Positions 1,814 through 28,728 of a stretch of 64,000 nucleotides of DNA are shown one piece after another (the first letter of the stretch is position 1; every line of letters starts with the position of its first letter). The notes below the pieces were generated by a model. It searched no databases. It saw nothing but the letters and a program-made list of their open reading frames with translations, and was not told the origin of the DNA. The translations under genes were made by a program, and so were the position numbers. The stretch comes from Verrucomicrobiia bacterium (GTDB lineage Bacteria; Verrucomicrobiota; Verrucomicrobiia; Limisphaerales; UBA1319), in NCBI GenBank assembly GCA_963664225.1, contig OY760937.1:5536001-5600000 (forward strand), written 5' to 3'.

Positions 1814-4800
1814 ATGAGTCATCAAACCTTATTCCTTTGTACCGCGCTTTTCGCAATGGCGACGCATGCCGCGCAACCGCCTTATGCCACGGACTTTGAG
1901 TCAGGCGTCGGAGCGGAATGGTCCCTGCCCAATGTCGATGCGAGCGAGATTGGATCTTTCAGCCGGTTTTCAGGGAGGTTCACCAATGACAAGCAGACGC
2001 TGACGTTGTCGAACATGACGGTGGGGGTTTCGTATTCGCTTTTCTTTGATTTTTACGCGATCGACACCTGGGATGGTTCTTATTCGGGCACGGGGGATTA
2101 TTTCAATGTGGGCGTGGATACGAACCAGGTTTTTCATTACACCTTCAGCAACTACAATGGGGATCCGCCGAGCAATCCTCAGAGTTATCCCGGGGTGCCG
2201 GATGTGGGACGGTACAATATGGGGTTTGCCGGGTATGTGGATGCGATTTACAGGAATATCGAGATCCCGTTTATCGCTTCGAACACGGTGGTACAAATCA
2301 GTTTTCAGGGGCAAAACCTGGAGGATATCAGCAACGAATCCTGGGGGATCGATAATGTCAGTGTGCGTCCCTCCTCGCAAACTCAAACGACCACGATTTC
2401 GTACACGACGCTGCCTCCGGATCATTCGACCAATGGGTTTGTGTTGGACGGTTTTGGCATTGGGGCGCTTCGCAATTTGCTTGGAACGACGGCGACCAAT
2501 GGGGCCAATTATTCTTTTCGCGAGGCCGGGGCGAATGGCGTGTTCGGGGATTCGGATGATGCCATCATTCCCCTGAACCTCAATTTTAATGGTTACAATA
2601 GCGTTAATTTCACGTTGACCAACGCGCCCTTGCAGCCGGGGAAATACCGGTTCGAGACGAAGGCGGGTCTGCTCGATACGAACAGTAATGCGGTGGCGGT
2701 GTTTGCGCGGGAGTTTGTGATCGCCAATCCGGTGGGAGGACAGATCGAAACTCCCAATAATGACTCGATTGCGACGGCGACCGCGCTGCCGATGGCTGAA
2801 AATCCAGCGGGATCGGGATTTTTCGCGGCGTTTGGCCTGGGATTGTTTTCGGCAAAGGGGGAGGCGGATTACTGGCGATTTGAAGGAGAGGCGCGGGACA
2901 AGTTGACCATTCGGCTGGAAGCCAACGCCAACGGAATTTATCCGCAACTTTATTTGCAGGACTCGACAGGGCAGACACTCAGTTCGGTGGGAGGGGATTA
3001 TTACGGGACAGCCCAGATTCAGAACTACGTCATCAGCAAGCCGGGGACGTATTTTGTGAAGGTGTGGAGCGACAATCAGACGGGGAAATACAAGTTGCGC
3101 GTGGATCAGTCGCGCGGTCCGCAATTGGAGCAGGAGGATAATAATGCGCAGAGCACGGCCAATGTGCTGGGGTTGACGTTCTCGACGGGGACTTACCAGG
3201 CGCGCATTGCGGGGGCGCTGACTGGAAACGATTCGGGCGCAGGGGATGTGTTTTCGCTGGGCACACTGAATGCGGGCAATTCCATCAGCGTAGCACTTGC
3301 CATGCCTGTGGGAGGTTCGCTGGTCACGAGTGCGGCCATTCTCTCGATTGAGGGAGCTGGCGCGGGGAATGGCGTTTCTCTGGCGACAAACACGGCTGGT
3401 TTTTTGAATTTCATCGTGGCTTCGAATGATTTGTATTATGTGCGGATTGCCACGGCCAATTCGAACTTGAATCTGAATGCGCAGTATTTGCTGAGTATCA
3501 CGGTGGTGGATGGGGTGCCGCCGGTGGTGGTTTCCACGAGCCTGCCGGATGGGGGACAGGCGACGACCAACCTGATCGACAAGATATCGGTTCTCTTTAG
3601 TGAAGACCTGGCGCAGTCCGTAAACAACATGGGTCAACGGTATTTGACTTACGGTGGACGGCGGTATGCGGTCACACCCCCGGCGTTGTCGTGGGAGGAT
3701 GCCGAGACTTACGCGCAGTCCATTGGAGGCCATTTGGTCACGATCAACAGTCCTCTGGAAAACGAGTGGATTCGAAGACAGTTCAGCTCGTATGGATCGG
3801 TGTGGATCGGATATACGGACAAGGCTGCGGAAGGCACCTGGGTGTGGGCTGATGGGAGTCCGACGAAGTACACGCATTGGAATTCCGGAGAGCCGAATAA
3901 TTCAGGAGGCAACGAGAATTATGGTGTCATGCTGACATCGGGGTTCTGGAACGATGTGAACGCAGCCACAACGGCCTATGGCGTGGTTGAGATTGGCACG
4001 GGGGGACTGGACACCGATGGGGACGGACTGGCCAACGCGATCGATCCGTTTCCCAACGATGCCCTCAATGGATTCGAATTGCGCGGGGCCGGGGCGGACG
4101 GTTTGTTTAAAACGGCTGACGATCGGGTTTATGCCCTTGTTGCTGATTCCTATTCCGGCGGATTGGCGGTCACCTTGCGGGTGACCGATGGTCCCTTGCT
4201 GCCGGGCAAATACCAATTCGTGCTGACGACTTCCATCAAGGACCGCGCTGGAAACAGCATGGCGGGAAATTATACCAACTCGTTTGTTGTCACGGCCCTT
4301 TCGGGTTATGTCACCTATAATGGGGCGGGGGATGTGACGCCGATCAGTGGCAGCGTAGCCGCGGCTCCGGATGGGTCGTTGGTCAATTATTCCGATGCTC
4401 CAACGGGCCGATATCCCCGGGGAATTGCCGCCGGACTGCTGGATGGGGGCACGAACCTGGATCTGGCGGTGGCCAATTACGGAAGCGGCGATGTGAGTAT
4501 TTTGCTCGGGGCGGGGGACGGGACGTTTTATCGGTCCACCAATTACGCCACGGGCAACGGAGCTGCCACAGTGACGATGGGAGATTTGAACAAGGACAAC
4601 CGGATGGATCTGGTTGTCGTGAATAACAGCGCGAATAATGTCACCGTTTTAATGGGCAATGGGGACGGGACATTTCAAAGTGGGACCAATTACGCGGTTG
4701 GATCGAGTCCGATCGGACTGGTTCTGCGCGATTTCAATGGGGACGGCAAATTGGATCTGGCGGTGGCCAATCAGTCCGCAAAGACGATCAGTGTTTTAAT

Positions 4801-13800: not shown

Positions 13801-16800
13801 TCGGGCGGTGCTTTCACAGAACATCATACTTGGTGACGAGGACGATATTTCGCTGGGCGTGTTTCCTCATGCCGGGGCATTGGCTCCCGGAGCGGGTTAT
13901 ACGGTGACGCGCACCGCACAAATCCCGGATGGAGTCAGCGGGCCGTATTATTTGATTGTGCAGACGGACGTTGGGAACGCGGTCAATGAATTCCTGTTTG
14001 AGGCGGATAACACAACGGTATCAGACCACACTTTCAACATCACACTGGCTGATTATGTCGATTTGAAAGTGGAGGATCTCAATGTGGCGGGGCCTGACAA
14101 TGCGGGCAGCTACACCATCACATGGAAGACCGCGAATCGCGGAAAGGCTGACTCGACGCAGAATTTCTATGAGCGGATACTGGTCAAGAACCTGACCTCA
14201 GGCGAGGTGCTGCTGGATCAGGAAGCCTTGACGACCAATGCGCTGCCCGTGAACAGCACGCTGGCACGCACGAATTCAGTGAAGACCTCGACGGCTGGAA
14301 ACTACCTTGTCAGAGTGACCACGGACTCGCGGAATAATATTTACGAATATGACGCCACCAGCCACGCGAACGCCGAGCGGAACAGCGTGGATGGTGCCTT
14401 CCAGATCACGCAAATCTACAATATCGCAGCGGGGGCGAATCCCGCAGGGGCGGGAACCATCACCGGCGCCGGGCAGTATGTCATCGGTTCCGTGGCCGAA
14501 TTGACCGCAATACCGGTCACGACGGATAAACCGTATTCCTTCCTGAACTGGACGGAGAACGGAACATTCCAAACCGCCAGCAATACATATCGGTTCAGCG
14601 TAACAAGGGACCGGCAGTTGACGGCGAATTTCGCGTTGCCGGTATTCCAGATCGCAGCCGTCAGCGTGCCTGCGGTCGGCGGGACGGTGACCGGAGCCGG
14701 GACGTACGCCTATGGAGTCACGAACACACTCAAGGCCATCGCCAACGATGGCTATCGGTTTACGAATTGGGTGGAAAACGGGTCTGCGATCAGCACCCAA
14801 ACCAGCCTGACATTTGGAGTGTACACCAACCGTGCGTTAATCGCGCGGTTTGTGGAGGCGAACGTGTTCCATGTGGTCACCACGGCCACGCTGCCGGCGG
14901 GAGTCGCGGCGGTGAGCGGCGCGGGCACCTACAACAACGGCCAGACGGTTTCGATTGTGGCGCCGGCCGCCGTAACGAATGGGCCGATGGCCTATACCTT
15001 CAAACGATTTACACAGAACGGGAATCCGTTCGGAAATGCGCCGTCGATTTCCAAGACGTTTTCAACGCTGGATTCGACGAACATCGCCATTGTCGCGGAA
15101 TACGATGGACGCAGCATTTTGCCGGTGGTGGTCAATGTTTCGGTGAATTACACCAATCCGGTTCCATTGACGACCAACTACGTGCTGACCTTCCAGTTCG
15201 ACCGGTCCATGCGAGGGACACCGGAACCCCAGATTGTGCTGACCAATGCGCAATCGGCGGTTCAACCCGTGGTCGCCAGCGGCGGCCAATGGAGCACGAC
15301 GGCTTCCAACAATGACACCTATTCCACGCCGCCCATTGTCTTGACGACCGGGATGGATGGCACGAACCAGGTTTGGATTTCCAAGGCGCAGGATTTATCA
15401 GGCCTGACGCTGGATCGAACGAACGTCTATGCCGCAATGGTGGATGCGACTCCTCCGGTCCAGCCGGTTTTCAGTCTCGTTTCCTCGAATGCCAGTTCCG
15501 TGGTGCTGGGCTGGTCCGGATATGCGGCTCCACAGGACCTGGCGGGATTCAGAGTTTATTTGGTGCAAACCAATTTCACGACATTGGCGGGTCTTTCCCC
15601 GATTACGGGACTGGCCCCAAGCGCGCGGAACTTCCAGGTTTCAAACCTCAGTCTCGACACCGATTATTATATTGCGGTCATCGCATCGGACATCGCCGGC
15701 AATAGCGCTGGCACTGTGACGCCGCTCAAGATCAAGCTGCCGACCACACTGCCTCCGAAAGTGACGATTGATGTGGCTGCCGTGGGTCCGAACTCGGCCC
15801 GCATTTCCTGGACTGGATATGACACCAGCGCCTTGTTTGGCTTCTCCGGATTCAGGCTCTACATGAAGGATTCACCGTTCGCGATTGTGAACGGAATGAC
15901 GCCCAGCGCGTCGTTCGATGCGCAAACGCGGCAAGCCCAAGTCGATGCCCTGGATCGATCGAAGAAATACTATTTTGCCGTGGTGGGTGTGAATGCAACG
16001 AACGGGTTTATTCCCGTGGTGACCACGCGGCAATGGTCGGATCCGTATGCGGGGAATATCGCCGCCAATCTGACCATCGGTGGAATCGATCAAACGGTGG
16101 ATATTTATCAAACCATGGTGGTGACCAACGGGGTGACATTGACGATCAACGCCGGAACAACACTTCGATTTGCGCCTGGATCGGGCATTGTCGTCGATCA
16201 GGGTTTGATCATGGCCCAGGGGACAGCCCTTGATCCCATTGTGTTGACCTCGTCTTCAGACACCAATGGCGGAAGCCCGGCCGCAGGGGATTGGGCCGGA
16301 TTGGTTGTCAGGGGCAACGCAGCCAATGCCTCCAAATTAACGCAGGTATGGGTCAAATACGGGCAGGGTTTGGTTTTGGACAATGCGACTCCGGTGGTCG
16401 ATGCCTTCTCGGCGGTTTACAATGCTCCGTCGGGACTTCGACTCACGAATGGGGCTGCGTTAACGACCAAAGATGCGTTGATCAGCTTGAACCAGGTTGG
16501 TGCGATGCAATCCGACACGTCGCGATTGATGGTTTGGAATTCGGTCATCAAGAACAACGCCACCAATGCCTGGGCTCGGGGAAGTCTTGGCCTTGTGGCC
16601 ACACAAAACTGGTGGGGCACGCCGCTGCAAGCGGACGTGGTGTCACGATTGACGGGAAATGTCGATGCGAGAGGGTTCCTGGAATCTGAACCGTTGCTGA
16701 CTCCCGCGGCGGGTATTGTGGGAGGATTGACGAGAGTGAGCAGCCAATCGTTGGAGCTGAAATTCGCATGTCGCACAGCGGAATCGATGCGGGCGAGTGA

Positions 16801-19800: not shown

Positions 19801-22408
19801 GACACCGGACGGATCCATCAACTTCACTGTGGCGGCAGTGCTGGTGCCCGAAGCACTCGGATCCAGCGCGAGCACCACATTCGAAGTGGCGGCCAGCCGC
19901 ATCTATTACCGGCTGGGCAATCCGGAAGTGCTGGAATCAGGTCCGATATCGGGCTCAATGTCATCGAGCCTGCGGCAGACAGATTATTTTGGAACGGCAT
20001 CGACGGATAAAACGGGTTATTCCAATGAGGATCCGATCGTCATTTCCGGGAAGGCCATTGTGCGATCCACGGGCCTGCCATTGGCGAATGCGCCTTTGAA
20101 GATTGGATTTGCAACCCGCGGGTTCAACTGGTTCAAGGAAACGACGACCGACAGTCAGGGCAACTACCAGTATTCCTATTCCACCATGCCTGGTTTTGGC
20201 GGCACCTTGATGTTGTGGGCCGCGCATCCGGATGTGTTCGACCAACTCAACCAGGCGCAAGTGTCCGTTTACAAGATGTATGCCACGCCATCCCGCGGGG
20301 AAATTCGGATGTCGAAGAACGACACGATGGATTTCAGCGTGAGCCTGGTCAATCCCGGGGACATTCCGTTAACTGGTTTTACGACCGAGTTTCATGCCTA
20401 TGTCGTGGATGGAACCAATTATAATGAAATAACGACGATCACCGGAACGAACCTTCTGGGAGCGGGATTCCAAGTGGAGCAGGGGAAGAACCAGACGGCG
20501 GGATTTCGATTGAAGGCGTCTCCAAACGCGCCTGACAAGGCAGTGATCGAGTTTGACGTTCGTTCCGAGCAAGGAGCGCTGGCGACGTTTGTGGGGAATG
20601 TGACCCTGTTGCCGGCCCTTCCGGTGCTTAACGTGGTCAATCCAGCCGTGGGCTATCTGGAGGTCAGTCTGGATCGCGGCAAGATATTGAGCCGACAGGT
20701 GACCGTTGTGAACGGCGGTCTCAAGGATCTCAAGGGGGTTACATTAGTGGCTCCGACCAATGTGACGTGGATGAACGTCAACCTGCCCGTGTCCGATGAC
20801 GGCACGATCCATCTGCCTGATATTGGGATTGGCCAATCGAACACCTTCAGTGTGGTGTTCACACCGCCGAGTGACACACCGCTCAATTATTACAACGACT
20901 TTATCGCGATTCGCGGGACCAATGCGCAGACGGAGTTTAAAGTGCGTTTGTATGCGCTGGTTACCTCCGATCAAAAGGGGTCGGTGCAATTCTTCGTGGA
21001 CAATAACCTTGGGCAGTCGGTATCGAATGCCACGGTGCGGTTGCGCAGCAGTTTGCTGCAATTGGAGCTGACACCATCGATTACAGACGGCAACGGCCTT
21101 GTGACGGTGGATGGGTTGCAGGAAGGCGATTGGTCGTGGCAGGTGAACGCGCCGGGGCACAGCAGCACGGTGGGGACCATCACGGTGGTGCCTTCGCAGA
21201 CCGTGCAGGTGCATACGCGGCTGGCCAAGAGCCTGGTGACGGTGACATTCAATGTGGTTCCAGTGCCCTACACGGACAAATACGAAATCAAGATCGAGCA
21301 AACGTTTGAAACCCATGTTCCGGTGGGTGTGCTCGTGGTCGATCCGCCTTTCAAGGATTTCAAGAAGATCGATTCCGGATTCGAGGCAAACTGGATTGTC
21401 ACCGTGCAAAACTACGGTTTGCTGGAGATGACCGATGTGACCATCGAGGGCGCGGAAACCGGGGGCGGCAAATTGACACCGCTCATCGAATTCATTCCGG
21501 TTCTTTTGCCGATGCAAAAAGTCGAAGTGCCTTTCACATTTGCCTATAACGCTTCGGCAGGAACCACGACCAACACGACCCAGTCATTGAAAAGACAGCG
21601 AATACCCGACTCGGACGATCTTGCCCAGTGCGTTGCGGGGATGATGCCTTTTGGCAGCCTTGCGGATCCCAATATCTTCAGGGGACTGGCTGCCATATTC
21701 CAGGCGAGAGAGAGGTGCATATCCGATCTGGATCCGCAGACCGCATTGGCGTCCGTGGGTATCATATTCGCCATAGGCCAGATCGCAGGCGCGATCGGCA
21801 GCGCCCAGGAATTCATCGTCGGGGCCATTGGGGGATTGATCAGTTGCATCATCGGCAATTTTCTTCCCTTACCCGACAGCGGCCCGTTCTCGTCATACCC
21901 GGGACCGCGATCAGACAACGCATTCCAGATTGGCAATTTGCAGTGCTTCGATGCGGACACACCGGTATTGATGTCGGATGGAACCTCAAGGCCGATTGCA
22001 TCCATCAAGGTGGGCGACCGGGTGAAGACCGGTTCCTACGCTGGAAATGTGGCCGAAGTGCGCGAAGTATTTACGCGCGACCAAACACCCGTGCGAAAGC
22101 TGACGATCAGCGATGGGCTGGAGCATGGAGTGGATCGGGAGATCATTACAACGGACGAACACCTGTTCTGGGTGGACGGGCGCGGATGGATGGCCGCATG
22201 CAATCTGAAAGGCGGGGATTACCTTGTGGATTCAAATAACGAGCGGATCAAGGTGCTGACCAATCACAAGCTGGACAAGGCGATACGCGTCCATTCGTTC
22301 CAGTTAAAAGGCGACAGCGCCTTTTATGCAAACGGGGTGCTTGTGCGCGATATGTGCGGTTTGGGTGGAGTGAAACAGGTCGCCGCAGGGAAGGGGGTGG
22401 CGCAATGA
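1814..22408 (+). CDS. Giant secreted multidomain adhesin-like protein (Ig/PPC/C-type lectin/FG-GAP x21/LamG x3/CARDB/FN3/beta-helix) with C-terminal Hint domain
   Basis: The ORF opens at GTG 1781; ATG 1814 gives a Sec signal (MSHQTLFLCTALFAMATHA|A). Three blocks of seven DxNxDGxxD repeats, LamG motifs (WTHIAATYD...LYVNG...IDEVRVW), CTL EPN/WND, CARDB (PNLQVT...NAVNE) and Hint C1 at 21944 (CFDADTPV...TTDEHLFWV...FYANGVLVRDMC). Confidence 0.92.
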   Translation: MSHQTLFLCTALFAMATHAAQPPYATDFESGVGAEWSLPNVDASEIGSFSRFSGRFTNDKQTLTLSNMTVGVSYSLFFDFYAIDTWDGSYSGTGDYFNVGVDTNQVFHYTFSNYNGDPPSNPQSYPGVPDVGRYNMGFAGYVDAIYRNIEIPFIASNTVVQISFQGQNLEDISNESWGIDNVSVRPSSQTQTTTISYTTLPPDHSTNGFVLDGFGIGALRNLLGTTATNGANYSFREAGANGVFGDSDDAIIPLNLNFNGYNSVNFTLTNAPLQPGKYRFETKAGLLDTNSNAVAVFAREFVIANPVGGQIETPNNDSIATATALPMAENPAGSGFFAAFGLGLFSAKGEADYWRFEGEARDKLTIRLEANANGIYPQLYLQDSTGQTLSSVGGDYYGTAQIQNYVISKPGTYFVKVWSDNQTGKYKLRVDQSRGPQLEQEDNNAQSTANVLGLTFSTGTYQARIAGALTGNDSGAGDVFSLGTLNAGNSISVALAMPVGGSLVTSAAILSIEGAGAGNGVSLATNTAGFLNFIVASNDLYYVRIATANSNLNLNAQYLLSITVVDGVPPVVVSTSLPDGGQATTNLIDKISVLFSEDLAQSVNNMGQRYLTYGGRRYAVTPPALSWEDAETYAQSIGGHLVTINSPLENEWIRRQFSSYGSVWIGYTDKAAEGTWVWADGSPTKYTHWNSGEPNNSGGNENYGVMLTSGFWNDVNAATTAYGVVEIGTGGLDTDGDGLANAIDPFPNDALNGFELRGAGADGLFKTADDRVYALVADSYSGGLAVTLRVTDGPLLPGKYQFVLTTSIKDRAGNSMAGNYTNSFVVTALSGYVTYNGAGDVTPISGSVAAAPDGSLVNYSDAPTGRYPRGIAAGLLDGGTNLDLAVANYGSGDVSILLGAGDGTFYRSTNYATGNGAATVTMGDLNKDNRMDLVVVNNSANNVTVLMGNGDGTFQSGTNYAVGSSPIGLVLRDFNGDGKLDLAVANQSAKTISVLMGNGDGTFKTAVNYGTGNQPYSLVAADFNGDGKVDLAVANYGESTVSVLNGNGDGTFNAKVDYPTGTGPRGLDVGDLNGDGKLDLVTGNTDAGTVSILAGNGDGTFAAKADYASGGSDVYQILLADFNGDNRLDVVVPGFGNSRLCILLNRGNGTLESPMTYPAGNNAIWAAAGDFNGDQRLDLAVVNYYASTVTVLNGVGAKLLTEDPIGSGIRIGAGRGQLKNQSDVDVWNFTAKAGDLVSVAVEVPGNPAASQLYYRIYNAAGDTLTDFYTSYNGWGQSAPYRFAASGTYWIGVQRYYDYFSEYRLRVTLASPPTQMETEDNSDISHANKPALELASGHLTASVLGYFGVGDANGDYFNFGNLAAGATIQLTMKQPSSSGLAGVLGIYDAGGNLVANGAPGATPVSYTIPPGGGSNYYARVMGAGIYGLHAASGNSALVFDGNADFVMVTNAPSLDLSNQFSLEAWVYPRNFAGRDRAVISKVGGTGGNNGYQLVFGQDGKLSLLFNASGESWPANSVSTPPLDILNRWTHIAATYDNDTMRLYVNGQLAASNTIGAKSVVKSLSNLRIGNDDNAYVFFDGLIDEVRVWNTARSASAILTGMSQSLTGAESGLAGYWPFNEGSGGVASDLSPNKNSGILGNGVASQQPAWVALRTTDQPAAGIFAQYLMGVDIADAVAPLITSITLPAANSTNQIMIDRFTITFNKDMMASTVTNSLSYDLRSAGPDGLFNTGDDVLYPVINQNYSSGLSSSYLIGDGPLQSGSYRLTAKTALKDRSGNALAADYKRDFVVAGVAGFITENRSNDTQNTATSLSIAPGNLNDGSFYQGDSVGVGSRPYSIVSGRFNGDNHLDLATANSSDGTISILLGSGSGTFTNATNISVGGNPYNVATGDFNGDGKADLSVTKDSPYQVVILLGAGDGTFQAFTNYTVANSPRVQAVGDFNKDGKLDIAVACQSVDKVSVLLGNGDGTFKTNVDYPVGSQPYGIAMGDFNKDGKLDLVVGDYNGDQVSVLMGKGDGTFDSAVNYPTGGGPRAVAVGDMNGDGTLDIVTANSQGNSLSMLEGKGDGTFLAKRDFGMTIYDTYQVLLTDLNGDGRSDVVIAAYGAGRLGVLLNRGNWAFENYEDYSMPSGIGVVAGDFNEDLRTDLAVASYSNNKVTVFSGNNNELLAEDPAGSGIRSSAARGNVSGVNDVDYWSFSAKSGDILALSVETPGNPAASQLYYTVYYPNGAVVSEFAADSYYGWGNLSPVRLNVSGTYTVGVRRYYDYVGEYRIRVTLAPDKYQMEVEPNNDIAHANAPTLVLANGHQTANVVGSIGEGDGSGDYFRLGNLSGGTLIHLGLTQPTVSPLQDILTIYDTNGTIITNSAIRGTSLDFTIPTGGDGAYYARVQSANPGAVQFSGGNDYVNVGNWSPGTQWTVEAWVKPNAAPSGRHGIAGGFNSCADWGIVLQDGQFGIATKPPSGCSITIPSGEAVTLNQWYHVAATCDGTNAQLYVNGVLKATGPVSVNYSANGNGTWIGSEACCGNETFSGLIQEVSIWERPLSGAEITSGMSHALAGTETGLAGYWKLNEGVGTVALDSSTRNRNGTLVNGPVWARSDLAGFASAALPGTVIFDRLYAIYALNIDLSDSQPPSIVAVSLPDEGSTNTTIVDRFTINFNKDMMATTVTNAATYELRSSGANGIFDTADDEIYTISCDGYTSGLTASYRISDGPLQPGFYRFTIKTALQDRTGNPLPQNYTRKFKVEGVDGFILETRNNNTLGQATSLSRARTATPDGSFRQAENVNVENNPRFAGVADLNGDGKLDMVVANSGAGNVSVLLGVGDGTFQPRTNYATGSGPTGVALADYDKDGKIDAVVANYNANTITLLQGNGDGSFQAITNITTGNHPLYLISGDFNRDGKPDFGVTCNGENKIYVYIGHGDGTFDAPSIYSTGTNPEILAAGDFNGDGKPDLAVGNYRSANVSVLLGNGDGSFQAPVQFATGAGPAAVAVGDLQNKGKLDLVVANYDAGTLSVLRGDGAGNFGTNTDYSTGGTQPYILTLADINGDGFLDVVVPNSGSGNVAVMLNLGDGTFAAPVTYTTGYRPFQVVAKDFNQDGRLDFAAVCYGNAYVSLYLGNDTEYLAEDPTGSGIRTSASRGRMTTSTDADYWSFTGKAGDWLIVAVDTPGTPAGSALDFRVDGPNGANVTDFQGGYYGYGQCAPVQLPFTGTYTILVKKYYDYQGEYRMRVTTAPSSYQLEQEDNSAINRANTLNLAAANQHRAANVLGYIGTGDDSGDYYSLGNLGAGTTITLKTQRPLTSGLWPAMAIYKTGGTPVTNSVGGITNLSYTIPSGGDGAYYIGVAKSDFGPRAGLRLDGSQAVGYGSWLTNQAFSVSMWIKPDASQTSYADIMDNNHRGGVNWVIQQDGGNVNSYSFGVADGGLPPTFYITPGNWHHLMVSRDAARLDRVYLDGQVVSSTTGTGDINYDGNQFLRSGRWGGGGRNWNGVIDEVHIWDHALTALELQRDIGYATAPGDAGIIGFWKFNEGSGSVVKDYSAFARDGAIEGTPQWGSFAEQPYDPLFAQYILKVDLSDTLPPVITSVSLPDEGSTNSAILDTFTVAFSKDMLASTVTDPGSYEFRGAGDDGILGTGDDILYTIQCDGYGSGLSAAYHIMDGPLQPGLNQLTISTAMKDRSGNPIAAPFIRTFAIGSIGGFAFETRNNNTAATATPITLIEDPTGFKSGGGRGNLSSASDVDFWKFDGHTNESVVLSVEIPDHPGGSQLHYQIFAPNGNNLADFTSDYYGSGLSSVLLLPTNGVYTIRVEHYYNYFYEYRIRLGVAVPPMQMEAEGNDDIAHANAIALAPGGQGRYGSMAGCIRTSGDLDYYSIAGITNGSTVFVSVRLPSTSRLSPVVSLYDKNNQYLAEAPGGRPNDGVAQVRITQDGAYYAVVRGSEGVGGITEQYVVDFQVIPSGNVNFPNLQVTSLIPPTGLITSGGSISFGFSVTNIGSVATPAAAWSDRAVLSQNIILGDEDDISLGVFPHAGALAPGAGYTVTRTAQIPDGVSGPYYLIVQTDVGNAVNEFLFEADNTTVSDHTFNITLADYVDLKVEDLNVAGPDNAGSYTITWKTANRGKADSTQNFYERILVKNLTSGEVLLDQEALTTNALPVNSTLARTNSVKTSTAGNYLVRVTTDSRNNIYEYDATSHANAERNSVDGAFQITQIYNIAAGANPAGAGTITGAGQYVIGSVAELTAIPVTTDKPYSFLNWTENGTFQTASNTYRFSVTRDRQLTANFALPVFQIAAVSVPAVGGTVTGAGTYAYGVTNTLKAIANDGYRFTNWVENGSAISTQTSLTFGVYTNRALIARFVEANVFHVVTTATLPAGVAAVSGAGTYNNGQTVSIVAPAAVTNGPMAYTFKRFTQNGNPFGNAPSISKTFSTLDSTNIAIVAEYDGRSILPVVVNVSVNYTNPVPLTTNYVLTFQFDRSMRGTPEPQIVLTNAQSAVQPVVASGGQWSTTASNNDTYSTPPIVLTTGMDGTNQVWISKAQDLSGLTLDRTNVYAAMVDATPPVQPVFSLVSSNASSVVLGWSGYAAPQDLAGFRVYLVQTNFTTLAGLSPITGLAPSARNFQVSNLSLDTDYYIAVIASDIAGNSAGTVTPLKIKLPTTLPPKVTIDVAAVGPNSARISWTGYDTSALFGFSGFRLYMKDSPFAIVNGMTPSASFDAQTRQAQVDALDRSKKYYFAVVGVNATNGFIPVVTTRQWSDPYAGNIAANLTIGGIDQTVDIYQTMVVTNGVTLTINAGTTLRFAPGSGIVVDQGLIMAQGTALDPIVLTSSSDTNGGSPAAGDWAGLVVRGNAANASKLTQVWVKYGQGLVLDNATPVVDAFSAVYNAPSGLRLTNGAALTTKDALISLNQVGAMQSDTSRLMVWNSVIKNNATNAWARGSLGLVATQNWWGTPLQADVVSRLTGNVDARGFLESEPLLTPAAGIVGGLTRVSSQSLELKFACRTAESMRASEDSAFKGTFFAPFASRQIFQLSDGGGHKSIFVQFRSTTGDTNTPLLLQVEYVTSGPQIINFNLAEGQVISRPLLVTGIATAVLGIQSVEFYADNVLADSVTTGIYSRRWDMRTLSPGIHRVKLLARDKGGSIATEERNVTINPTPAPAPFIVTPASDGIQAQTTVSVAGTAEPNIGLRLTDNGTLLATSVADATGGFKFDNMVLVEGANELVVIAYDDIGSSRSITRRIVLDTGAPSAVVLDAPIYVPNFGVNLSWNYAKVGERPSKFQVFWAKTPFISTNQAIGKSLVLSLTTYAVQGLADGTYYFGVLGYDDAGNHSPMSSLVSLKYDATAPSFNISYDKSPPVGVGPVQVTLTASEPLTGTPGLTLKPANSTPISLNLTNVSASSYVTAIVISNTTLSGLAIWNVSGQDVSGNVFNGAPAGQPFNIDVIQPVGSIATLPASPVQTLVPTNVSVNLTLSKPAKTGTPPIIKFTPPIGAEVGVTMSGTGTNWVGLLPLQTSMGSGFGQFAMTAVDALDNTGTNITSGAVLEIYNTALPSAPETPTNFVARTIVGGLVRLTWNAVTNADIYRLYREPGSNTTAPTALVADNLSTNGLDDLPSADGRYTYAVTASRRGSESNPSKIVVGVSDRTPPGAPTNVAAELASSGVQISWRPPAGEKPFKYLVYRNGVLIGSTSTGTNLVDAPPRGVASYTVSSADVTGNENLSTPATIDMLVGAVEHLAVLVNSGQAPVLSWTSSDTTAIGFNVYRNGIKQNASALTVASYTDNLPVGNDAIEYVVRAVNAKSEESAPRVVKIYSVTLDLLANAGGDTVSKPLVTRYFDNYRVSVTNLTVNNVFPLETVELRRVAGGGVTTTQTIPVGQSVASGNWYNRDVVFASATTVDAQSMRMRVIQSSDLGGSSVIYQRTFDFASVLEPSLMMSLSASQPPLAGGLTDFDVRLYNRGYADINVIVVRENGAAPGDVYVAVKNALGQEVSRTAYRGTPKGTFFMNDGRGYVRVTPDGSINFTVAAVLVPEALGSSASTTFEVAASRIYYRLGNPEVLESGPISGSMSSSLRQTDYFGTASTDKTGYSNEDPIVISGKAIVRSTGLPLANAPLKIGFATRGFNWFKETTTDSQGNYQYSYSTMPGFGGTLMLWAAHPDVFDQLNQAQVSVYKMYATPSRGEIRMSKNDTMDFSVSLVNPGDIPLTGFTTEFHAYVVDGTNYNEITTITGTNLLGAGFQVEQGKNQTAGFRLKASPNAPDKAVIEFDVRSEQGALATFVGNVTLLPALPVLNVVNPAVGYLEVSLDRGKILSRQVTVVNGGLKDLKGVTLVAPTNVTWMNVNLPVSDDGTIHLPDIGIGQSNTFSVVFTPPSDTPLNYYNDFIAIRGTNAQTEFKVRLYALVTSDQKGSVQFFVDNNLGQSVSNATVRLRSSLLQLELTPSITDGNGLVTVDGLQEGDWSWQVNAPGHSSTVGTITVVPSQTVQVHTRLAKSLVTVTFNVVPVPYTDKYEIKIEQTFETHVPVGVLVVDPPFKDFKKIDSGFEANWIVTVQNYGLLEMTDVTIEGAETGGGKLTPLIEFIPVLLPMQKVEVPFTFAYNASAGTTTNTTQSLKRQRIPDSDDLAQCVAGMMPFGSLADPNIFRGLAAIFQARERCISDLDPQTALASVGIIFAIGQIAGAIGSAQEFIVGAIGGLISCIIGNFLPLPDSGPFSSYPGPRSDNAFQIGNLQCFDADTPVLMSDGTSRPIASIKVGDRVKTGSYAGNVAEVREVFTRDQTPVRKLTISDGLEHGVDREIITTDEHLFWVDGRGWMAACNLKGGDYLVDSNNERIKVLTNHKLDKAIRVHSFQLKGDSAFYANGVLVRDMCGLGGVKQVAAGKGVAQ

Positions 22409-25400
22409 AAACGACTCCATCGATTTTAATTCGAAATCTCATGAAGCCCATTGAACGCATACTGAATGTTGCCCCTAAATGGATTGGCTCATGCGTTTGC
22501 GGTTTGTTTCTATACTGCGCCATGACTGCTTCGGCACAGCAGGAACAGCGCGGACTCTGCGCTCAGGTCAAGATCGTGATCCTTCAAGAATTGACGTTGG
22601 AGCGCATCGGTTTTGAGGCCACTCTTGAAGTGACCGATAATGACGGGAATGATCCGATCACAGACTTTTTCGCCGATCTCACGTTCGAGAATCCGGCGTT
22701 GTCCACGAATGGCGTGGCCAACGATGCCTCATCCCTGTTTTTCGTGCGCGCGCCGGAACTGCAGAATATTTCCGACGTGAATGGCGGGGGAGTGATCGGG
22801 CCCACAAAGAAGGCGGTGATACGCTGGTTCATCATTCCCAAGATCAAGGCTGGTGGAATCACCCCTGATGGAGTCCGTTATAAAGTGGGCGCCAAGCTCA
22901 GCGGGAAGTTTCAGGGAATACAATTGCCCAGCGATGTGTTGCAGGCCCTGCCGGACACGATTGTGGTCAGGCCCGAGCCGCAATTGGAAATCACCTATTT
23001 CCAACCGAGAGATGTGCAAGGTGACAATCCTTTCACGCCCGAGGTGGAAAGCCCGATTCCATTTTCCATCGGCGTGCTGGTAAAGAACTCAGGCTATGGC
23101 ATTGCGCACAAACTTAAAATCGCGTCGCAGCAGCCGCAAATTGTGGAAAACAAGCGGCATCTATTGTTGGTGGCGCAATTGCTTGGGTCGCGGGTTAATG
23201 ACGCGCCGCTCGATAATGCGAACCTGACCGTGGTGCTGGGCGATTTAAACCCGGGGGAGGCGCAGAAAGCCTCCTGGGACATGATCACATCGCTCTCGGG
23301 AGAGTTTACCGATTTCAAGGCTTCGTTCACCCATGCTTCGGACCTGGGTGGTGAGGAAACCTCGGTGATCAAATCGATCAACGCGTATTTCATCGCCCAT
23401 GAGGTTCTTAACGACATGCCGGGCCGCGATAAATTGCTCGATTTTCTCGCGGACACGGATCGTGACGAAAACATGATACCGGACGCGCTTTACGAAAGTG
23501 AGGGGAATGTCGAGCCCGTCAACTATCTGGCGAATACCACCATCGATGCGATATCGGGCACACCCGGTGCCTACAGGATCAGCCTGGATGCGGATCGTTC
23601 CGGCTGGTGCTATATGAGGTTGAACGATCCCGGGCAAAACCGGTTGAAAATCGAGAGCATCGTTCGTTCGGACGGCAAGGTGATCAACCCCCATAATATG
23701 TGGACCAATACCCGGTATGCCAAAGTGACCAATGCCCGGTCCGATTATCTCAACTTGTTCGATCTCGTTGATCTCAAAAAATACACTTATACCGTGCAGT
23801 ATGCTCCATCGAGCATCGATACGACACCGCCTGCGACCACTTTGCGGTTTGTCGGCACTTCCGCTTATTCCAACGGGAGATACTACATCACGCCCGATGC
23901 TCAAATGTACTTCACAGCGGAAGATCAAAGTCCGGTCAGTATTTATTACAGCCTGACAAACAGCGCGTTTATACCGGCGTATCCATTTGTGCTGCGCACG
24001 CCGGGAGAATACGCGCTCAAGTATTACGGGCAGGATGCCAGTGGGAATCGGGAGGCAACCAATTCCACCGTGCTTGTGGTTGGGAACGCGGGTCCGACTT
24101 TATTAAGCTTCCTTGGCGCGACGCAGGCGGTGATTACCTCCGGAGACGCGTTGTCCGTTCGCCCGAATTCCGCCGACATTCGTTACCGCGCGGGATTCAG
24201 CCCCGTGCCGGTGGATGCCTATCTGGATATTTTCCAGGGAGTCATGGGCTGGCCTGTGGTTTCAGGGGTGCCATCGTCGCCCACTGCCGCCACTCTTGCG
24301 CATTTGGTCATCCGCGGCGACTGGGTGGATTTTTACAAATACAGTCTGGATGGCGGCGCGTGGAGCGCTGAAAAGCCGGTGGCGCAAATATTGCATTTGC
24401 TCAATCTGTCCGCAGCCCAGCATAGCGTGAAGGTGCTGGGACGCTCCGCATACGGAGACTATGGCGCGGAAACCAATGCGGTGGCGGTTCAATGGACCGT
24501 TGATCCAGCGGCTCCGCCGACCCAGATCACGGGCACGCCGGCCACCCCAACGAGCGATCTTTTTGCGACGCTCAAAGTTGCAGGCACGGGAGTTAATTTG
24601 TACCGGTGGACATTGAGCAACGGCTATTATCGCGCGCCCGCCGGTGTGGCTGTTCCTCTTTCGATCACGAATCTGGGAGCGGGACCACAAAACATTTCTG
24701 TCATCGGCCTGTACTCAGGCGCGTGGCAGCCAACGAATAATCCAACAACGGCTGCCTGGACGGTGGATCCGGCTTACGGCTCCGATTATTCATCCAAGAC
24801 GCTTGTGCGCAGTGTGACCAATCGGAATGTTGGATTCCTGCCGCAGAGTTTTGCCTGGGATGGCCGGAACGAGCAGGGGACGATCATGCCTCCCGGGTGG
24901 TACACCGTGCGGCTGACACTCAAGGATCAGGTGGGGCGGTCCACCTACGCGACCAAGCTGGTGCAACTGGGCGAATTCGCCGGGTCTTTCAATGCGCTCG
25001 CCGCCGCCAGTCGAGGACCTGAGAATCCGAATGCGCGCGGACGTTGGGCCGTCTGGCAGGATCAAAGCTCGGGCAATTCGCAAATCTATGCGCAGGATTT
25101 GCTGATACCCGGCAATGCCCCGTTCGGTTTGACGACCAGCACTCGCAGCCAGGAGAAGCCAAGAACAGATGGCCGCTTTGTGGTCTGGCAGTCCCGGCAA
25201 ATCAATGGCGGGTGGGACATATGGATTCGCGATCTATTGTCGGGCGGCCAGGCCTCAGCACTGACCTCGACAACCGATGTCGATGAAACCAATCCAACGG
25301 TCGATTGGCCCTGGGTCGTTTATCAGTCCAAGTCGTCCCTGGACGCCAAGGCGCCGCAACAGTTGAAGGCGGTGAACCTGGTAACAGGGGTCACTCAATC

Positions 25401-26436
25401 GGTTTCAGACAGCACGCAGGATGAACTGGATCCGGACGTGCAGGCGGGCCGGGTGGTCTGGCAGGATTCCCGGGATGTGGGAGCCGGGGAGATCTACTTT
25501 AAGAACCTTGAGAGCGGCGAACTGAGGCGTTTGACGACTAATGCCTTTGGCCAGTATCATCCCGCCATCCACGGCAACGAGGTCGTGTGGCAGGATAATC
25601 GCAACGGCCAGGTGGACATTTACGCGTTCGACTTGCTTCGGGACACGGAGGTGCGGATCACGCAAACCGCCGAAAACGAGACCCGGCCGTTCATCGATGG
25701 GCCGTGGTGCGTTTGCGAGGAGGATTCCCTGGGCGTCTCGGTGGCCAATATACGGCTCATCCATCTGCCTACGCGACAAATCGTGCCGATCACGCGCACG
25801 ATGACCACCAAGTCGCGTCCGGCATTGGCCGCCAGTCACGTGGTGTGGCAGGATAGCGCCGGTGGGCAGAATACGATCATGTCCGCGGAGTTGCCGTCGT
25901 TGCAGCCCGTGTTCCAGAATCAGAATATCGTGGCGGTGACCGAGGCGCTGGCTGCCAATCAGCATGATGCCAGAACTTTGCTGTCGCGATGGAATGCGCA
26001 GGCCGGTGTGACGGAAGTGACGCGAGTCGCTTCGTTGACGCCCACGGTTACTTTTGAGACGGCTCGATGGAACAAAGGACAATTCAGCGGAACCAATTTC
26101 GTGCTGGCCGGCGGTTCGTTTTTGTGGGTGAAGTTCGATACGAATCAAGTCATCGACCTGGGGGTCAATGGCCGGGGCTTTGCCGATCTGAGCGCGGGTG
26201 TCAATGCCATCAGCTACACCGCGTTTCCCAATGATTATTCCGCGTATCAAATGGTGCGGCAGTTGGGTGTGGACAAGGTCAATGCGATCCGAATTCTCGA
26301 ATCGGAATCGGGTCGCTGGCTGGTGGCCGAAGTGCGAAACAGCCGGTTGATTGGTGATGATTTTCCGATCCCGCGCGCGGCGGTGGTCTTTGTGGATATG
26401 GATTCGGCAGTGACGCAGTGGCGGCCGGAACCCTGA
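22405..26436 (+). CDS. Large secreted partner protein: conserved N-terminal domain, Ig-like repeats, FlgD-Ig-like domain, Methanosarcina-type surface beta-propeller repeats, tandem C-terminal repeat
   Basis: ATG 22405 overlaps the upstream stop (ATGA) after a G-rich SD-like tract. Signal peptide ends TASA|QQ. Motifs LCAQVKIVILQELTLERIGFEATL, FAWDGRNEQGTIMPPGWYTVRL and repeated VVWQDxRxGxxDIY. Confidence 0.85.
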   Translation: MKTTPSILIRNLMKPIERILNVAPKWIGSCVCGLFLYCAMTASAQQEQRGLCAQVKIVILQELTLERIGFEATLEVTDNDGNDPITDFFADLTFENPALSTNGVANDASSLFFVRAPELQNISDVNGGGVIGPTKKAVIRWFIIPKIKAGGITPDGVRYKVGAKLSGKFQGIQLPSDVLQALPDTIVVRPEPQLEITYFQPRDVQGDNPFTPEVESPIPFSIGVLVKNSGYGIAHKLKIASQQPQIVENKRHLLLVAQLLGSRVNDAPLDNANLTVVLGDLNPGEAQKASWDMITSLSGEFTDFKASFTHASDLGGEETSVIKSINAYFIAHEVLNDMPGRDKLLDFLADTDRDENMIPDALYESEGNVEPVNYLANTTIDAISGTPGAYRISLDADRSGWCYMRLNDPGQNRLKIESIVRSDGKVINPHNMWTNTRYAKVTNARSDYLNLFDLVDLKKYTYTVQYAPSSIDTTPPATTLRFVGTSAYSNGRYYITPDAQMYFTAEDQSPVSIYYSLTNSAFIPAYPFVLRTPGEYALKYYGQDASGNREATNSTVLVVGNAGPTLLSFLGATQAVITSGDALSVRPNSADIRYRAGFSPVPVDAYLDIFQGVMGWPVVSGVPSSPTAATLAHLVIRGDWVDFYKYSLDGGAWSAEKPVAQILHLLNLSAAQHSVKVLGRSAYGDYGAETNAVAVQWTVDPAAPPTQITGTPATPTSDLFATLKVAGTGVNLYRWTLSNGYYRAPAGVAVPLSITNLGAGPQNISVIGLYSGAWQPTNNPTTAAWTVDPAYGSDYSSKTLVRSVTNRNVGFLPQSFAWDGRNEQGTIMPPGWYTVRLTLKDQVGRSTYATKLVQLGEFAGSFNALAAASRGPENPNARGRWAVWQDQSSGNSQIYAQDLLIPGNAPFGLTTSTRSQEKPRTDGRFVVWQSRQINGGWDIWIRDLLSGGQASALTSTTDVDETNPTVDWPWVVYQSKSSLDAKAPQQLKAVNLVTGVTQSVSDSTQDELDPDVQAGRVVWQDSRDVGAGEIYFKNLESGELRRLTTNAFGQYHPAIHGNEVVWQDNRNGQVDIYAFDLLRDTEVRITQTAENETRPFIDGPWCVCEEDSLGVSVANIRLIHLPTRQIVPITRTMTTKSRPALAASHVVWQDSAGGQNTIMSAELPSLQPVFQNQNIVAVTEALAANQHDARTLLSRWNAQAGVTEVTRVASLTPTVTFETARWNKGQFSGTNFVLAGGSFLWVKFDTNQVIDLGVNGRGFADLSAGVNAISYTAFPNDYSAYQMVRQLGVDKVNAIRILESESGRWLVAEVRNSRLIGDDFPIPRAAVVFVDMDSAVTQWRPEP

Positions 26437-26473
26437 ACGCGATCGAAAAATATTTGAGAGGAAACAATTTGAA

Positions 26474-27295
26474 ATGAAAAAGATCATCAATTACGCAGGC
26501 CTGCCAGCCGTCGCTGCCGTCTGGCTGCTGGCGGGCGTCTGCCAGGGCCATGGCGCAACGGTCGCGGATTTGCAGAAGCGCCTGGCGGAGGGCAAGCCCG
26601 TGACGATCATCGATGTGCGGCCCAACGAACTGTATCGCAATGGGCATATCGAGGGCGCGATCAACATTCCGGCGAATCTGTTGTCTGCGAAAAAGCTTCC
26701 CGCGCTGGGACAGGTCATCGTTTGCGCGGAAGGACTGGGTCGGGACAAAGTGGAGGAGTCGGTGAACTGTCTCAATGGAAAAACCGGGATTCAGGCGGAG
26801 GCGCTGGATGGCGGTTTTGCCGCATGGGAAACAGCGCAGGGCGGCAATACCCGGCCCATGGGATTGCAGCCGGAAAGCCTGGTCCACATCACGTACGATC
26901 AACTCAAGACAACGAAATTGACTGATGTTGTTCTGGTGGATCTGCGGCGGAACAGTCCCGCCACGCGTCAAAGCGTGAACAGCGCGACCAATGTTTCTGA
27001 AGCCGCGTTGACGGATCTCAGCAAAGAGTTTCCGGGGGCGGTGATTTCGCCATCCCCATTCAGTCTGGCAGGCGCAAAACAATCCAGTGCCAACCGGCGC
27101 GAATCCGCACCCTTATTGGTGCTCATAGACACCGGCAACGGAATCGCTGAAGAGACGGCGCGCAGCTTGCAGGCCAATGGCTACCGGAGGGTTGTGATTC
27201 TGGCAGGCGGTGAGCAGGCGCTGGCACGCCAGGGACAACCCGGATTGCAACGCATGGGATTGGGATCGGTGATGACGAGTGGCGCGGATCATTAA
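26474..27295 (+). CDS. Secreted tandem rhodanese-domain protein
   Basis: Signal peptide. Domain 1: IIDVRP..YRNGHIEGAINIP...VIVCAEGLGR...LDGGFAAW (Cys present). Domain 2: VLVDLR...LVLIDTGNG...LAGG (Asp at the catalytic position). Confidence 0.85.
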   Translation: MKKIINYAGLPAVAAVWLLAGVCQGHGATVADLQKRLAEGKPVTIIDVRPNELYRNGHIEGAINIPANLLSAKKLPALGQVIVCAEGLGRDKVEESVNCLNGKTGIQAEALDGGFAAWETAQGGNTRPMGLQPESLVHITYDQLKTTKLTDVVLVDLRRNSPATRQSVNSATNVSEAALTDLSKEFPGAVISPSPFSLAGAKQSSANRRESAPLLVLIDTGNGIAEETARSLQANGYRRVVILAGGEQALARQGQPGLQRMGLGSVMTSGADH

Positions 27296-27309
27296 AAAGG
27301 ACCATAGCG

Positions 27310-28728
27310 ATGATAAAACGAAAATGGGGTTTTTCATACGGGAATGGGGCATTAAGAGTTCTTGCCTTATCCCTACTCCTGAATCTTGCCGGCATGATTG
27401 GCGCGGCGGGGGCGGTGTCGATATCCGGCGTTCAGGCTGTGAATGTCAGATCCGCCGGATTTGCCCTGGTGTGGTCCGTGGCGGGCGCTTCTGATCCAGT
27501 GGTGTCTATTTTTGCCGATCCGCAGGGCAAGACCAACCTGGCTGGGATTGTTGGGATCGAATGGTTCCCCTTGAATGGTGGGAATACCATCGGGGATAGC
27601 GTGTATGAAAAGCGACAGACTCAAACCGCCACACGCGTGGAAACCAAAAAGGTGGGACTGGTCATGGCGCAAATATCAGGCTGCAAGCCGGCGACGCAGT
27701 ACTATTATCGCGTGGGCGCGAAGGTTAACGGCGTGATCGCGGCACAATGGCCGGATTCTGGAGATTTGCCTGCGATTACGACCGCAGAATCCAACGGTTT
27801 TATCATCGACTCCAAACAACTTCTGCTGACCATTCCCGGTGTGCGCACATATGGGCGCATCATGACGTTGTCCACCACGAACGCAGCATATCCGCTGGCG
27901 GCGGTGGTAGGGGATGGAGCGGACACCAACCAGGTTTACTTCAATCTGTCCGAGCTGCTGTCAAAAGACGGGAAGACGAATTATGCAGGATCGCTGGACG
28001 AGCGGTTGCTGGTTGAAATGCTGGGACCCTCGCTTGGACAGGCCACGCAAAGTTTCTACCTGGGATATTCCTCCAATTTTGTGGTGGGAACAGCGGAGGA
28101 GCGCCTCTTTGTTTTGGACTCCCTGTCCCTGACTTTAAGTGAAAATATTTTGTATGCAGGCAGCAATGGGTTTCTGGGCATCTATTTGAAGTGCAATGCC
28201 GCGATCACCAATGTCACGGTGGATCTGGATCTGCCGTTGAGCCGGTTCACCAATATCAATGTTGTGCCGCTTGCGGTTCAGGGCGGACAGGCCACACTGG
28301 AGGGGAATCGAACGCTGCATCTGAATTTGCGGGTGGATTCGCATCAAACTTACTCCCAGCCGACCCTGGTGGCCCGACTGGCCTATCAGACCGTGCTGGA
28401 TCAGATTTCGGCCATTGTGCCTGTCACCATTACCGGCATGACCTCGACAAGGCCCGATGGATTGCCGCTGGCCGCAGTTACCGGGTTTGGGAGTCGGATC
28501 ATCATTGTCGCAAAACAGCCCATACTTGAGGCGATGCGAGGGGCAGAGACTCCGAGGTCACTTATCGTTTACGGACGCGAAGGGGCGCAGTATCGCATTC
28601 AGAGTTCAACAGCGCCGGAATTAAAGAATTGGCCCGATTACATGAGCGTGACCCTGACCAATATCGCGCATCGTCTTGACGGTTTGACTCCCACCAACTT
28701 GAATCGTTTCTATCGTGCTCAACAGTAA
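27310..28728 (+). CDS. Secreted protein with FN3-like N-terminus, cohesin/Ig-like middle and C-terminal YRIQSS...W...RFYRA motif
   Basis: Signal peptide; ISGCKPATQYYYRVG FN3-type motif; C-terminus GAQYRIQSSTAPELKNW...NRFYRAQQ. Confidence 0.65.
   Translation: MIKRKWGFSYGNGALRVLALSLLLNLAGMIGAAGAVSISGVQAVNVRSAGFALVWSVAGASDPVVSIFADPQGKTNLAGIVGIEWFPLNGGNTIGDSVYEKRQTQTATRVETKKVGLVMAQISGCKPATQYYYRVGAKVNGVIAAQWPDSGDLPAITTAESNGFIIDSKQLLLTIPGVRTYGRIMTLSTTNAAYPLAAVVGDGADTNQVYFNLSELLSKDGKTNYAGSLDERLLVEMLGPSLGQATQSFYLGYSSNFVVGTAEERLFVLDSLSLTLSENILYAGSNGFLGIYLKCNAAITNVTVDLDLPLSRFTNINVVPLAVQGGQATLEGNRTLHLNLRVDSHQTYSQPTLVARLAYQTVLDQISAIVPVTITGMTSTRPDGLPLAAVTGFGSRIIIVAKQPILEAMRGAETPRSLIVYGREGAQYRIQSSTAPELKNWPDYMSVTLTNIAHRLDGLTPTNLNRFYRAQQ

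Follow-up and report, generated by a model that had tools for sequence, protein, structure and literature searches.

Several described systems resemble parts of the locus reported here. Polymorphic toxins with RHS repeats and a pre-toxin HINT domain, exported through Sec and the type II secretion system (T2SS), were described by Zhang et al. (2012; PMC3482391, for the part of the text available to us), and giant attachment proteins encoded beside type II secretion loci are known from Omnitrophota (bioRxiv 10.1101/2023.11.21.568195, also available in part). We analyzed a 64,000-nucleotide stretch of a Verrucomicrobiia bacterium genome (contig OY760937.1, positions 5,536,001–5,600,000; the window, whose numbering is used throughout), in which four genes at 1814–28728 encode a giant Hint-bearing protein, a partner, a pseudo-rhodanese and a cohesin-fold protein. 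On balance, we favor reading them as pieces of a giant surface protein that is split here but made as a single chain in many relatives, with a clasp, a tag, an assembly factor and a self-cutting Hint as its working parts. The cluster encodes a real and conserved surface complex in split form, apparently undescribed, which represents a variant without toxin in a wide family with RHS toxin carriers; new here are the predicted strand clasp, the fused forms and the RHS link. An earlier, sequence-only reading had not recognized the system either, and no published description was found in the literature searched, which did not extend to supplements (notably Additional File 1 of PMC3482391), where such architectures may be listed, or to most subscription papers. 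The features of the cluster are as follows.

1814–22408, plus strand: gene 1, giant secreted protein of 6,864 residues (open reading frame (ORF) call and domain scans)
20981–21553, plus strand: 'core' module of gene 1, residues 6390–6580, a CarboxypepD/CnaB-like sandwich, clasp hairpin and second sandwich (domain and profile searches)
21230–21325, plus strand: predicted clasp hairpin of gene 1, residues 6473–6504 (complex prediction, conservation)
21554–21943, plus strand: variable insert of gene 1, residues 6581–6710, between core and Hint
21944–22357, plus strand: Hint domain of gene 1, Cys6711 to Cys6848, with Cys1, block-B TDEH and the end VRDMC, then a 16-residue tail (Pfam, alignment)
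22405–26436, plus strand: gene 2, partner of 1,343 residues (ORF call and domain scans)
22537–23856, plus strand: 'CAxV' region of gene 2, residues 45–484, three all-beta domains (profile searches, model)
22549–22644, plus strand: predicted clasp, the N-terminal hairpin of CAxV (complex prediction)
26474–27295, plus strand: gene 3, secreted tandem rhodanese-fold pseudo-rhodanese of 273 residues, no catalytic Cys
27310–28728, plus strand: gene 4, 472 residues (ORF and structure model)
28108–28515, plus strand: cohesin-fold domain of gene 4, model residues 232–367 (Z 16.4, root-mean-square deviation 2.1, 129 residues aligned to 6kgc_A)
28510–28719, plus strand: C-terminal 'FYR' domain of gene 4, about 70 residues (profile search)

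Like the polymorphic toxins, as far as the accessible text of PMC3482391 describes them, the giant combines a likely signal peptide, a long repeat stalk and a C-terminal PT-HINT domain, and relatives with the same core carry RHS and a Hint ending in His-Asn (HN) that is extended at the C-terminus, with a small gene downstream. Unlike them, the giant has no RHS or FilH repeats in Pfam/NCBIfam scans, no toxin domain behind the Hint (only the 16-residue tail) and Asp in place of Asn, and the gene that follows is not an immunity gene but a conserved secreted partner. It is likely that the system shares its origin with the RHS-Hint toxin carriers while itself lacking RHS and toxin. The first 300,000 characters of PMC3482391, which do not take in the Additional File, contain no mention of rhodanese, CARDB or Calx. 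The Omnitrophota giants share with our locus the Planctomycetes–Verrucomicrobia–Chlamydiae (PVC) group, giant attachment proteins and a link to T2SS-like genes, but their domains are different, and the available main text (bioRxiv 10.1101/2023.11.21.568195) mentions neither rhodanese nor FG-GAP.

The wide family to which our cluster belongs has three architectures and counts RHS toxin carriers among its members. Core and CAxV, names that we coined for this analysis, are two halves of one module, which travel together in nearly all genomes. Close relatives of our genome (L001–L003) carry the label Verrucomicrobiota. Among 61 relatives, core occurs in 24 and CAxV in 25, at adjacent places, and the same holds for 19 and 22, respectively, of 401 genomes; genomes in which one of the two is missing are fragmented assemblies, with several matches at contig ends. 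In the fused architecture (28 of the loci examined, and two more broken by an N-gap or frameshifts), core, insert and CAxV lie in one ORF. The fused inserts span 215–498 residues with 10–16 Cys in 27 of the 28, the remaining one being 96 residues long without Cys. Ten of the 28 fused ORFs end in a match to the C-terminal part of gene 4, and the tails differ by lineage: FYR in this order, where it terminates most fused relatives, a T9SS-like (type IX secretion system) tail in L166 as judged by eye, and Calx-beta in Nostoc. In the RHS architecture (G337, G289, G395, G139, G200, Eleftheria L088 and Methylomonas L089), core is followed by RHS, sometimes with an HN-type Hint and a C-terminal extension, and CAxV sits in a separate gene with a signal peptide. 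The Hint-only architecture is that of our own locus, and the slot held here by the insert contains a Cys-rich insert in fused forms and an RHS-toxin in others.

The module reaches beyond bacteria. Tandem core-insert-CAxV units are found in a hemichordate protein (P0007, Saccoglossus; three units, besides which we noted a C-terminal hydrophobic helix) and in a shrimp (P0016, Halocaridina; two), and a green alga has a single unit (P0160, Edaphochlamys). By source label, and at the level of proteins only, similar Hint giants come from Deferrisomatales, Dadabacteria and Thermodesulfobacteriota, and close partners from Ca. Magnetoglobus and Marinicellulosiphila. A quick tree of 57 CAxV rows resolves Hint (11 rows, support 99), RHS/signal-peptide (8 rows, 99) and fused (37 rows, 98) groups, the fused label being an assumption for L066, L071, L075 and L082; the Hint and RHS rows together with the long row L029 form one set (98) apart from the fused forms. 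The tree is unrooted and so gives no direction between architectures. As side observations, one 9,429-aa protein runs core-RHS-CAxV-stalk-core, with CAxV where the RHS toxin tip would be (L188–L189, G200:C21), and five genomes (G163, G364, G277, G409 and G458) hold several fused paralogues each, up to 4–5, with differing inserts.

Where the two halves are encoded apart, they are predicted to be joined by a strand clasp. The sequence-only reading had suggested modeling the C-terminus of the giant with the N-terminus of the partner, and the resulting complex of core plus insert (321 residues, 61 rows) with CAxV (440 residues, 57 rows), built from our own alignments, clears its controls: the interface score ipSAE is 0.87, versus 0.00 for the best of three controls, at least 75% of contacts are shared between runs and the partner pLDDT is at least 83. 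Of solved pairs, 116 of 157 attain the mark for this score, and of mismatched pairs 2 of 215, counts that apply only roughly to our own alignments, and halves of split genes tend to reach it through likeness to solved structures; the PDB holds no sequence relative of CAxV or of the clasp hairpin, and core matches it only over residues 6–88. In the model, chain-1 residues 84–115 pair antiparallel with partner residues 5–36 (101–107 with 19–13, 90–94 with 30–26), and the chain-1 hairpin also touches partner residues 253–267, a geometry of strand complementation; in protein numbering, giant residues 6473–6504 pair with partner residues 49–80 and with the second domain of the partner. The insert lies outside the confident interface. 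Among the non-Hint rows, the interface segment is 39% conserved versus 22–23% in the rest of core, and those of CAxV 38–39% versus 25–26% elsewhere in the region. Model and conservation together support the prediction that the core hairpin and CAxV bind by beta-strand complementation. Donor-strand complementation joins pilus chains in a comparable way, but CAxV matches pilins neither in sequence nor closely in fold (best Z 8.3, TM-score at most 0.23).

The partner consists of a long likely signal peptide, the CAxV region, an FlgD-like Ig domain, a beta-propeller (TIGR04275) and a C-terminal domain pair, of which only the Ig domain and the propeller belong to named families (Pfam/NCBIfam). Cys52 of CAxV is near-invariant, being conserved in at least 90%. 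The region has no sequence relative in Pfam or in the PDB (searched to E 1), fold searches return generic Ig-like matches only and the Atlas matches are hypothetical clusters, with DUF11 (0.82–0.83) as a lead only. It has 2,396 relatives among 50% identity clusters, and in 161 proteins from the CAxV searches it is N-terminal in 148 and internal in 13, 11 of these after core; a metagenome scan with an RHS-type CAxV query gave no match. The C-terminal domains of the partner were considered as a genome-wide tag and ruled out, as the genome holds one copy. Core-CAxV is an unannotated module of about 2,400 clusters at 50% identity, found fused, split with RHS toxins and split with a bare Hint, across several bacterial phyla as well as hemichordate, shrimp and green alga. 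The predicted clasp would give it a testable function in two small fragments (about 190 and 440 residues) and could explain by what means the cell holds toxins and arms of several thousand residues on its surface.

The layout described in the sequence-only reading is borne out, with four co-oriented ORFs, an ATGA overlap of genes 1 and 2 at 22405–22408 and gaps of 37 and 14 bp behind genes 2 and 3, and the four genes also belong together elsewhere. They occur in order in 14 of the 15 loci with a visible Hint giant: our own, G401, G415, G422, G428, G386, G137, G252, G231, L004, where an S8 peptidase gene lies between genes 3 and 4, and L162–L165, L162 being a near-copy at 97%. The contig of G404 begins inside gene 2 and shows genes 2–4. 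Profiles of gene 3 (E 1e-20) and of the N-terminal part of gene 4 (E 1e-5) match the same 6 of the 61 relatives, which are those with a close partner (57–100%), and none of the 19 genomes whose only CAxV match is of the distant kind; these counts include our own genome. The earlier idea of a multi-subunit cell-surface assembly is thereby supported, by co-occurrence, by the fusion of genes 1, 2 and part of 4 in relatives and by the complex model.

Gene 3 has the rhodanese fold (PF00581, 62.1 bits against a cut-off of 22.2, in two stretches) that it shares with sulfurtransferases such as GlpE and PspE. Unlike these, it has a likely signal peptide, is tied to this gene cluster and lacks the catalytic Cys, the position being A, G or D in nine of nine family members; Cys84 lies one residue earlier, at the Tyr position of the active-site strand (Cys there in 2 of 9), and alignment of the profile to 3nhv puts Gly on the catalytic Cys. 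The secreted sulfurtransferase of the sequence-only reading is therefore unsupported, and of its dedicated maturation chemistry the Hint thioester part stays plausible and the sulfurtransferase part falls. Rhodanese-like and transglutaminase genes adjoin 6 of 9 RHS/signal-peptide-type loci (by Pfam or record annotation for five, by profile for G200), and a profile of the RHS-type rhodaneses ranks gene 3 first in our genome (E 3.7e-14, next 7.9e-08). No transglutaminase accompanies any of 16 Hint-type loci, and no rhodanese was found next to the fused loci, in a search that covered 3 kb or more downstream for 22 of the 28 and 16 stretches upstream, one of these inside a paralogue. Since the dead rhodanese goes with the split form, a non-catalytic role in assembly is likely for gene 3. 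In passing, we note that the RHS-type rhodaneses (L049, L051, L052, L058, L088 and L089) end in a C-G-x-C-like Cys motif that Hint-type ones lack, that three of the RHS-type proteins have an N-terminal DUF1573 domain and that a 741-residue, unrelated-looking transglutaminase match lies upstream of one fused locus (G429).

Gene 4 has no family above cut-off in Pfam/NCBIfam. Its model (pLDDT 84) comprises an FN3-like domain with a helical insert, a second beta domain, the cohesin and a small final domain. The cohesin fold recalls scaffoldins, but no dockerin family is listed for genes 1–3 in the Pfam scan. Across the fold searches of this analysis, likeness to CLIPPER/isopeptide domains (9ifr) is weak, at Z scores of 6.5 and 9.9. 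A profile of the FYR domain, built from 28 relatives and run on the 20,219 ORFs of our genome, matches 95, of which 79 at the C-terminus, with gene 4 best and none in genes 1–3. These C-termini end in FYR or FFR, and the proteins that bear them, at least 79 in number, are large and look secreted. Neither a Pfam/NCBIfam name nor a paper was found for the domain, which is likely an export or anchor tag and a candidate lineage-specific sorting signal; from its spread over our genome, the group seems to use a sorting signal not yet described. The export route, left unknown by the sequence-only reading, is still conjectural yet less obscure, given this genome-wide domain on gene 4, a gspE-F-G...D operon elsewhere in our genome (C1:3.029–3.041 Mb) and the type II secretion cluster that follows the RHS-type locus L088. 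As a side observation, one run on that Eleftheria plasmid (L088:2730–35663) encodes an Ig protein with core, RHS, an ankyrin gene and the CAxV protein, along with the full type II cluster with its cohesin-bearing secretin and rhodanese-like and transglutaminase genes. Separately, protease genes stand beside gene 4 in four Hint-type loci, an S8 peptidase in three (L004:13390–16107, L039:9018–10718, L043:8060–9520) and a trypsin-like gene in one (L041:9257–10177), with FGE-sulfatase-domain genes following in two of the four.

The Hint of the giant exceeds the Pfam PT-HINT cut-off (36.7 against 27.7 bits). All 15 locus sequences keep Cys1 and the block-B T/SxxH, as do 35 of 37 further Hint-giant proteins; the other two have no Hint, look truncated and were left out, giving 35 of 35. 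The domain is kept across classes and phyla at 30–48% identity to our copy and is followed by a short, unconserved tail (13–39 residues in homologues). Among 49 distinct sequences, the Hint terminates in D in 40, E in 4, Q in 4, H in 1 and N in none, its penultimate residue is H in 37 and R in 7, and in all Hint-type sequences a Cys stands two residues past the terminal position; our copy has Asp where Asn is expected, Met at +1 and Cys at +2. Two Hints of the RHS type close with HN and then run into a long extension. In class 1 inteins, the N-terminal step depends on Cys1 together with Thr B7 and His B10, the C-terminal one on Asn (PMC4031507, in the part available). With Cys1 and the block-B residues kept and Asn never present, N-terminal self-cleavage is the likely conserved reaction: the Hint probably cuts only at its N-terminus, and thioester chemistry is plausible from the conservation of Cys1 and the block-B His.

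Two described Hint groups come close. Bacterial intein-like (BIL) domains and class 1 inteins share Cys1, Thr B7 and His B10 with the giant, whose best PDB match is the BIL domain 2lwy (E 1.5e-06), but the giant's Hint lacks their His-Asn end, carries Met at +1 and Cys at +2 and has no C-extein. Hedgehog proteins have a C-terminal Hint on a secreted protein, Cys1, a block-B His, no terminal Asn and a second conserved Cys near the end, all seen in the giant, and Hedgehog/Hog proteins have a sterol- (adduct-) recognition region behind the Hint. Unlike Hedgehog, the giant passes PT-HINT and stays below the cut-off of Pfam Hint PF01079 (20 against 29.7 bits; PDB Hedgehog at E 0.91), and it has only a short tail in place of an adduct-recognition region. 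The residues for a Hedgehog-type transfer of an N-terminal thioester to an acceptor are in place. With no Asn, an invariant +2 Cys and no cargo, this Hint clade offers a small system in which to test for chemistry of the Hedgehog kind in bacteria, and it would be of use in protein engineering if it ligates.

Our preferred reading would run as follows. Each protein would likely cross the inner membrane by Sec, judging from signal peptides assessed, for all four genes, by eye and from homologues only. The giant and the partner are then predicted to pair through the clasp, and the partner and gene 4 may associate through the modules found only in split loci, the C-terminal domains of the partner and the N-terminal domains of gene 4, which co-occur; in this way the complex would acquire the C-terminal domain present in cis in fused relatives. 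Export would likely go through the type II system, whose genes lie elsewhere in the genome. The Hint would form a thioester at Gln6710–Cys6711. Lacking a terminal Asn and cargo, it could then release nothing but itself, and hydrolysis would be the simplest way. The variable, hydrophobic insert would become the new C-terminus of the giant, and until release Cys1 may be tied up in a disulfide with the invariant +2 Cys. The arm, with its lectin, LamG and FG-GAP domains, likely binds glycans or surfaces.

Several points weigh against this reading. Our own Hint has Arg in the penultimate position and Ser at about F4, so that its activity is not assured. The hydrophobicity of the insert is uneven across homologues (maximum 19-residue window 0.75–1.98), which leaves the idea of the insert as a membrane anchor unsupported family-wide. 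The role of gene 3 and the binding of partner to gene 4 are argued from linked genes that occur together within a single clade (11 rows, support 99), whose counts are not independent, and in L003 genes 1–3 are present with gene 4 absent from the 6.6 kb behind gene 3. The complex score measures how confident the model is, given our own alignments, about the two halves of a split module, the CAxV tree is a quick search whose 20-row group takes in the long-branch row L029, and the FYR domain is assigned its tag role by reasoning with no paper found. No dedicated secretion genes flank the Hint-type loci in any locus read.

Of the alternatives, a trans-ligation survives best, though we consider it unlikely. 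After the clasp forms, the Hint thioester would be taken over by Cys52 of the partner (or a nearby amine), giving a covalent giant-partner chain and rebuilding core-insert-CAxV. In fused relatives the insert leads directly into the same Cys motif, and a Gly-rich linker precedes Cys1 of the Hint. The Cys also seems unpaired in the fused forms, where the insert Cys count is even in 20 of 23 and CAxV has no other Cys in 17 of 23 (5 of 28 rows were dropped because the motif was not found), but it is kept in fused and RHS types, where no ligation is needed, and the odd count in 35 of 49 Hint-type inserts fits a plain inter-chain disulfide equally; the parity pattern thus makes Cys52 either a disulfide partner or an acyl acceptor. 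The transglutaminase contrast noted above looks as if acyl transfer were supplied either way, yet it sets one clade against another. The mature N-terminus of the partner, moreover, is Gln-rich with Cys52 internal, so that no amide could form without trimming, and the complex model left the insert unplaced near Cys52. Equally doubtful is the broader form of this idea, a natural two-gene ligation in which the clasp joins the pair, the Asn-less Hint welds the giant to the partner Cys after export and the same clasp is the docking joint of RHS carriers and of the animal and algal proteins.

More improbable still is that the Hint is silent, a folded and catalytically inert cap inherited from an RHS-Hint toxin ancestor, and the cluster an ordinary multi-gene adhesin. 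The loss of the terminal Asn in 49 of 49 sequences and of the penultimate His here would fit, as would a permanent periplasmic disulfide between the two invariant Cys, but the residues of the N-terminal step (Cys1 and block-B T/SxxH; PMC4031507, as above) are kept in all sequences at 30–48% identity. Least probable is a cryptic contact toxin, with the insert as a payload (a membrane-active helical hairpin) unmasked by Hint cleavage and chaperoned or neutralized by gene 3 or 4: the insert does occupy the RHS-toxin slot of the sister clade, varies widely, has two hydrophobic segments in this genome and is matched in position by a frameshifted HExxH region in one fused relative, but it would stay joined to a 6,500-residue arm once the Hint cuts at its N-terminus, is unevenly hydrophobic without a family match and is followed by no small immunity-like gene, with no orphan cassettes in the loci read.

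The arm and insert of the giant can be described further. Behind a likely signal peptide, Pfam/NCBIfam scans find a C-type lectin, three LamG, Big_5, PPC, CARDB, InlB-B, fn3, Ig and CarboxypepD-like domains, with 18 FG-GAP_3 stretches grouped in three clusters, and the C-terminal order is fn3/Ig stalk, core, insert and Hint. A self-BLAST of gene 1 aimed at long repeats returned no rows, and repeat units were thus taken from Pfam and motif positions only. The sequence-only reading was right that the giant has no autotransporter barrel, RTX repeats (0 motif matches) or PEP-CTERM, and no T9SS C-terminal domain appeared in the Pfam/NCBIfam and motif scans either; Por_Secre_tail matches are sub-threshold and internal (residues 361–428). 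The insert has 3 Cys, two hydrophobic segments and a Gly/Pro-rich linker. Other Hint-type inserts are 20–49% identical to it, with one near-copy at 80%, figures that include two inserts mis-bounded at 188 and 199 residues. No family was assigned (Atlas best 0.75), and against the fused-form inserts there is no clear likeness (best E 0.04). Separately, the frameshifted HExxH region lies between core and CAxV at L180:3300–4700 (G438).

The earlier claim of one good promoter is not borne out, and we dropped this match as evidence: one was found upstream of gene 1, against 0.6 ± 0.7 expected from shuffles.

1732–1760, plus strand: sigma-70-like match TTGCAA-17-TAGAAT, 9 of 12 positions, at chance level

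The 50-bp gap 3' of gene 4 holds no terminator-like site. A contig of public run X3 spans 14000–30000 without difference and may be the source of the same DNA. Elsewhere in our genome, a second large ORF (C1:5241377–5254288; 4,304 residues) carries many CarboxypepD-like repeats with no match to the clasp hairpin. Downstream of the cluster, a HAD-NUDIX fusion, folB and tilS follow 50 bp after gene 4 (28779–31764), and an NADH dehydrogenase-like cluster with four antiporter-type subunits lies at 37239–49315, with no NuoEFG seen among the 31 ORFs scanned. As the sequence-only reading had it, no secretion genes adjoin the cluster in the domain scan; a TetR gene and an RND efflux operon lie about 24 kb off, on the minus strand at 52917–59515.

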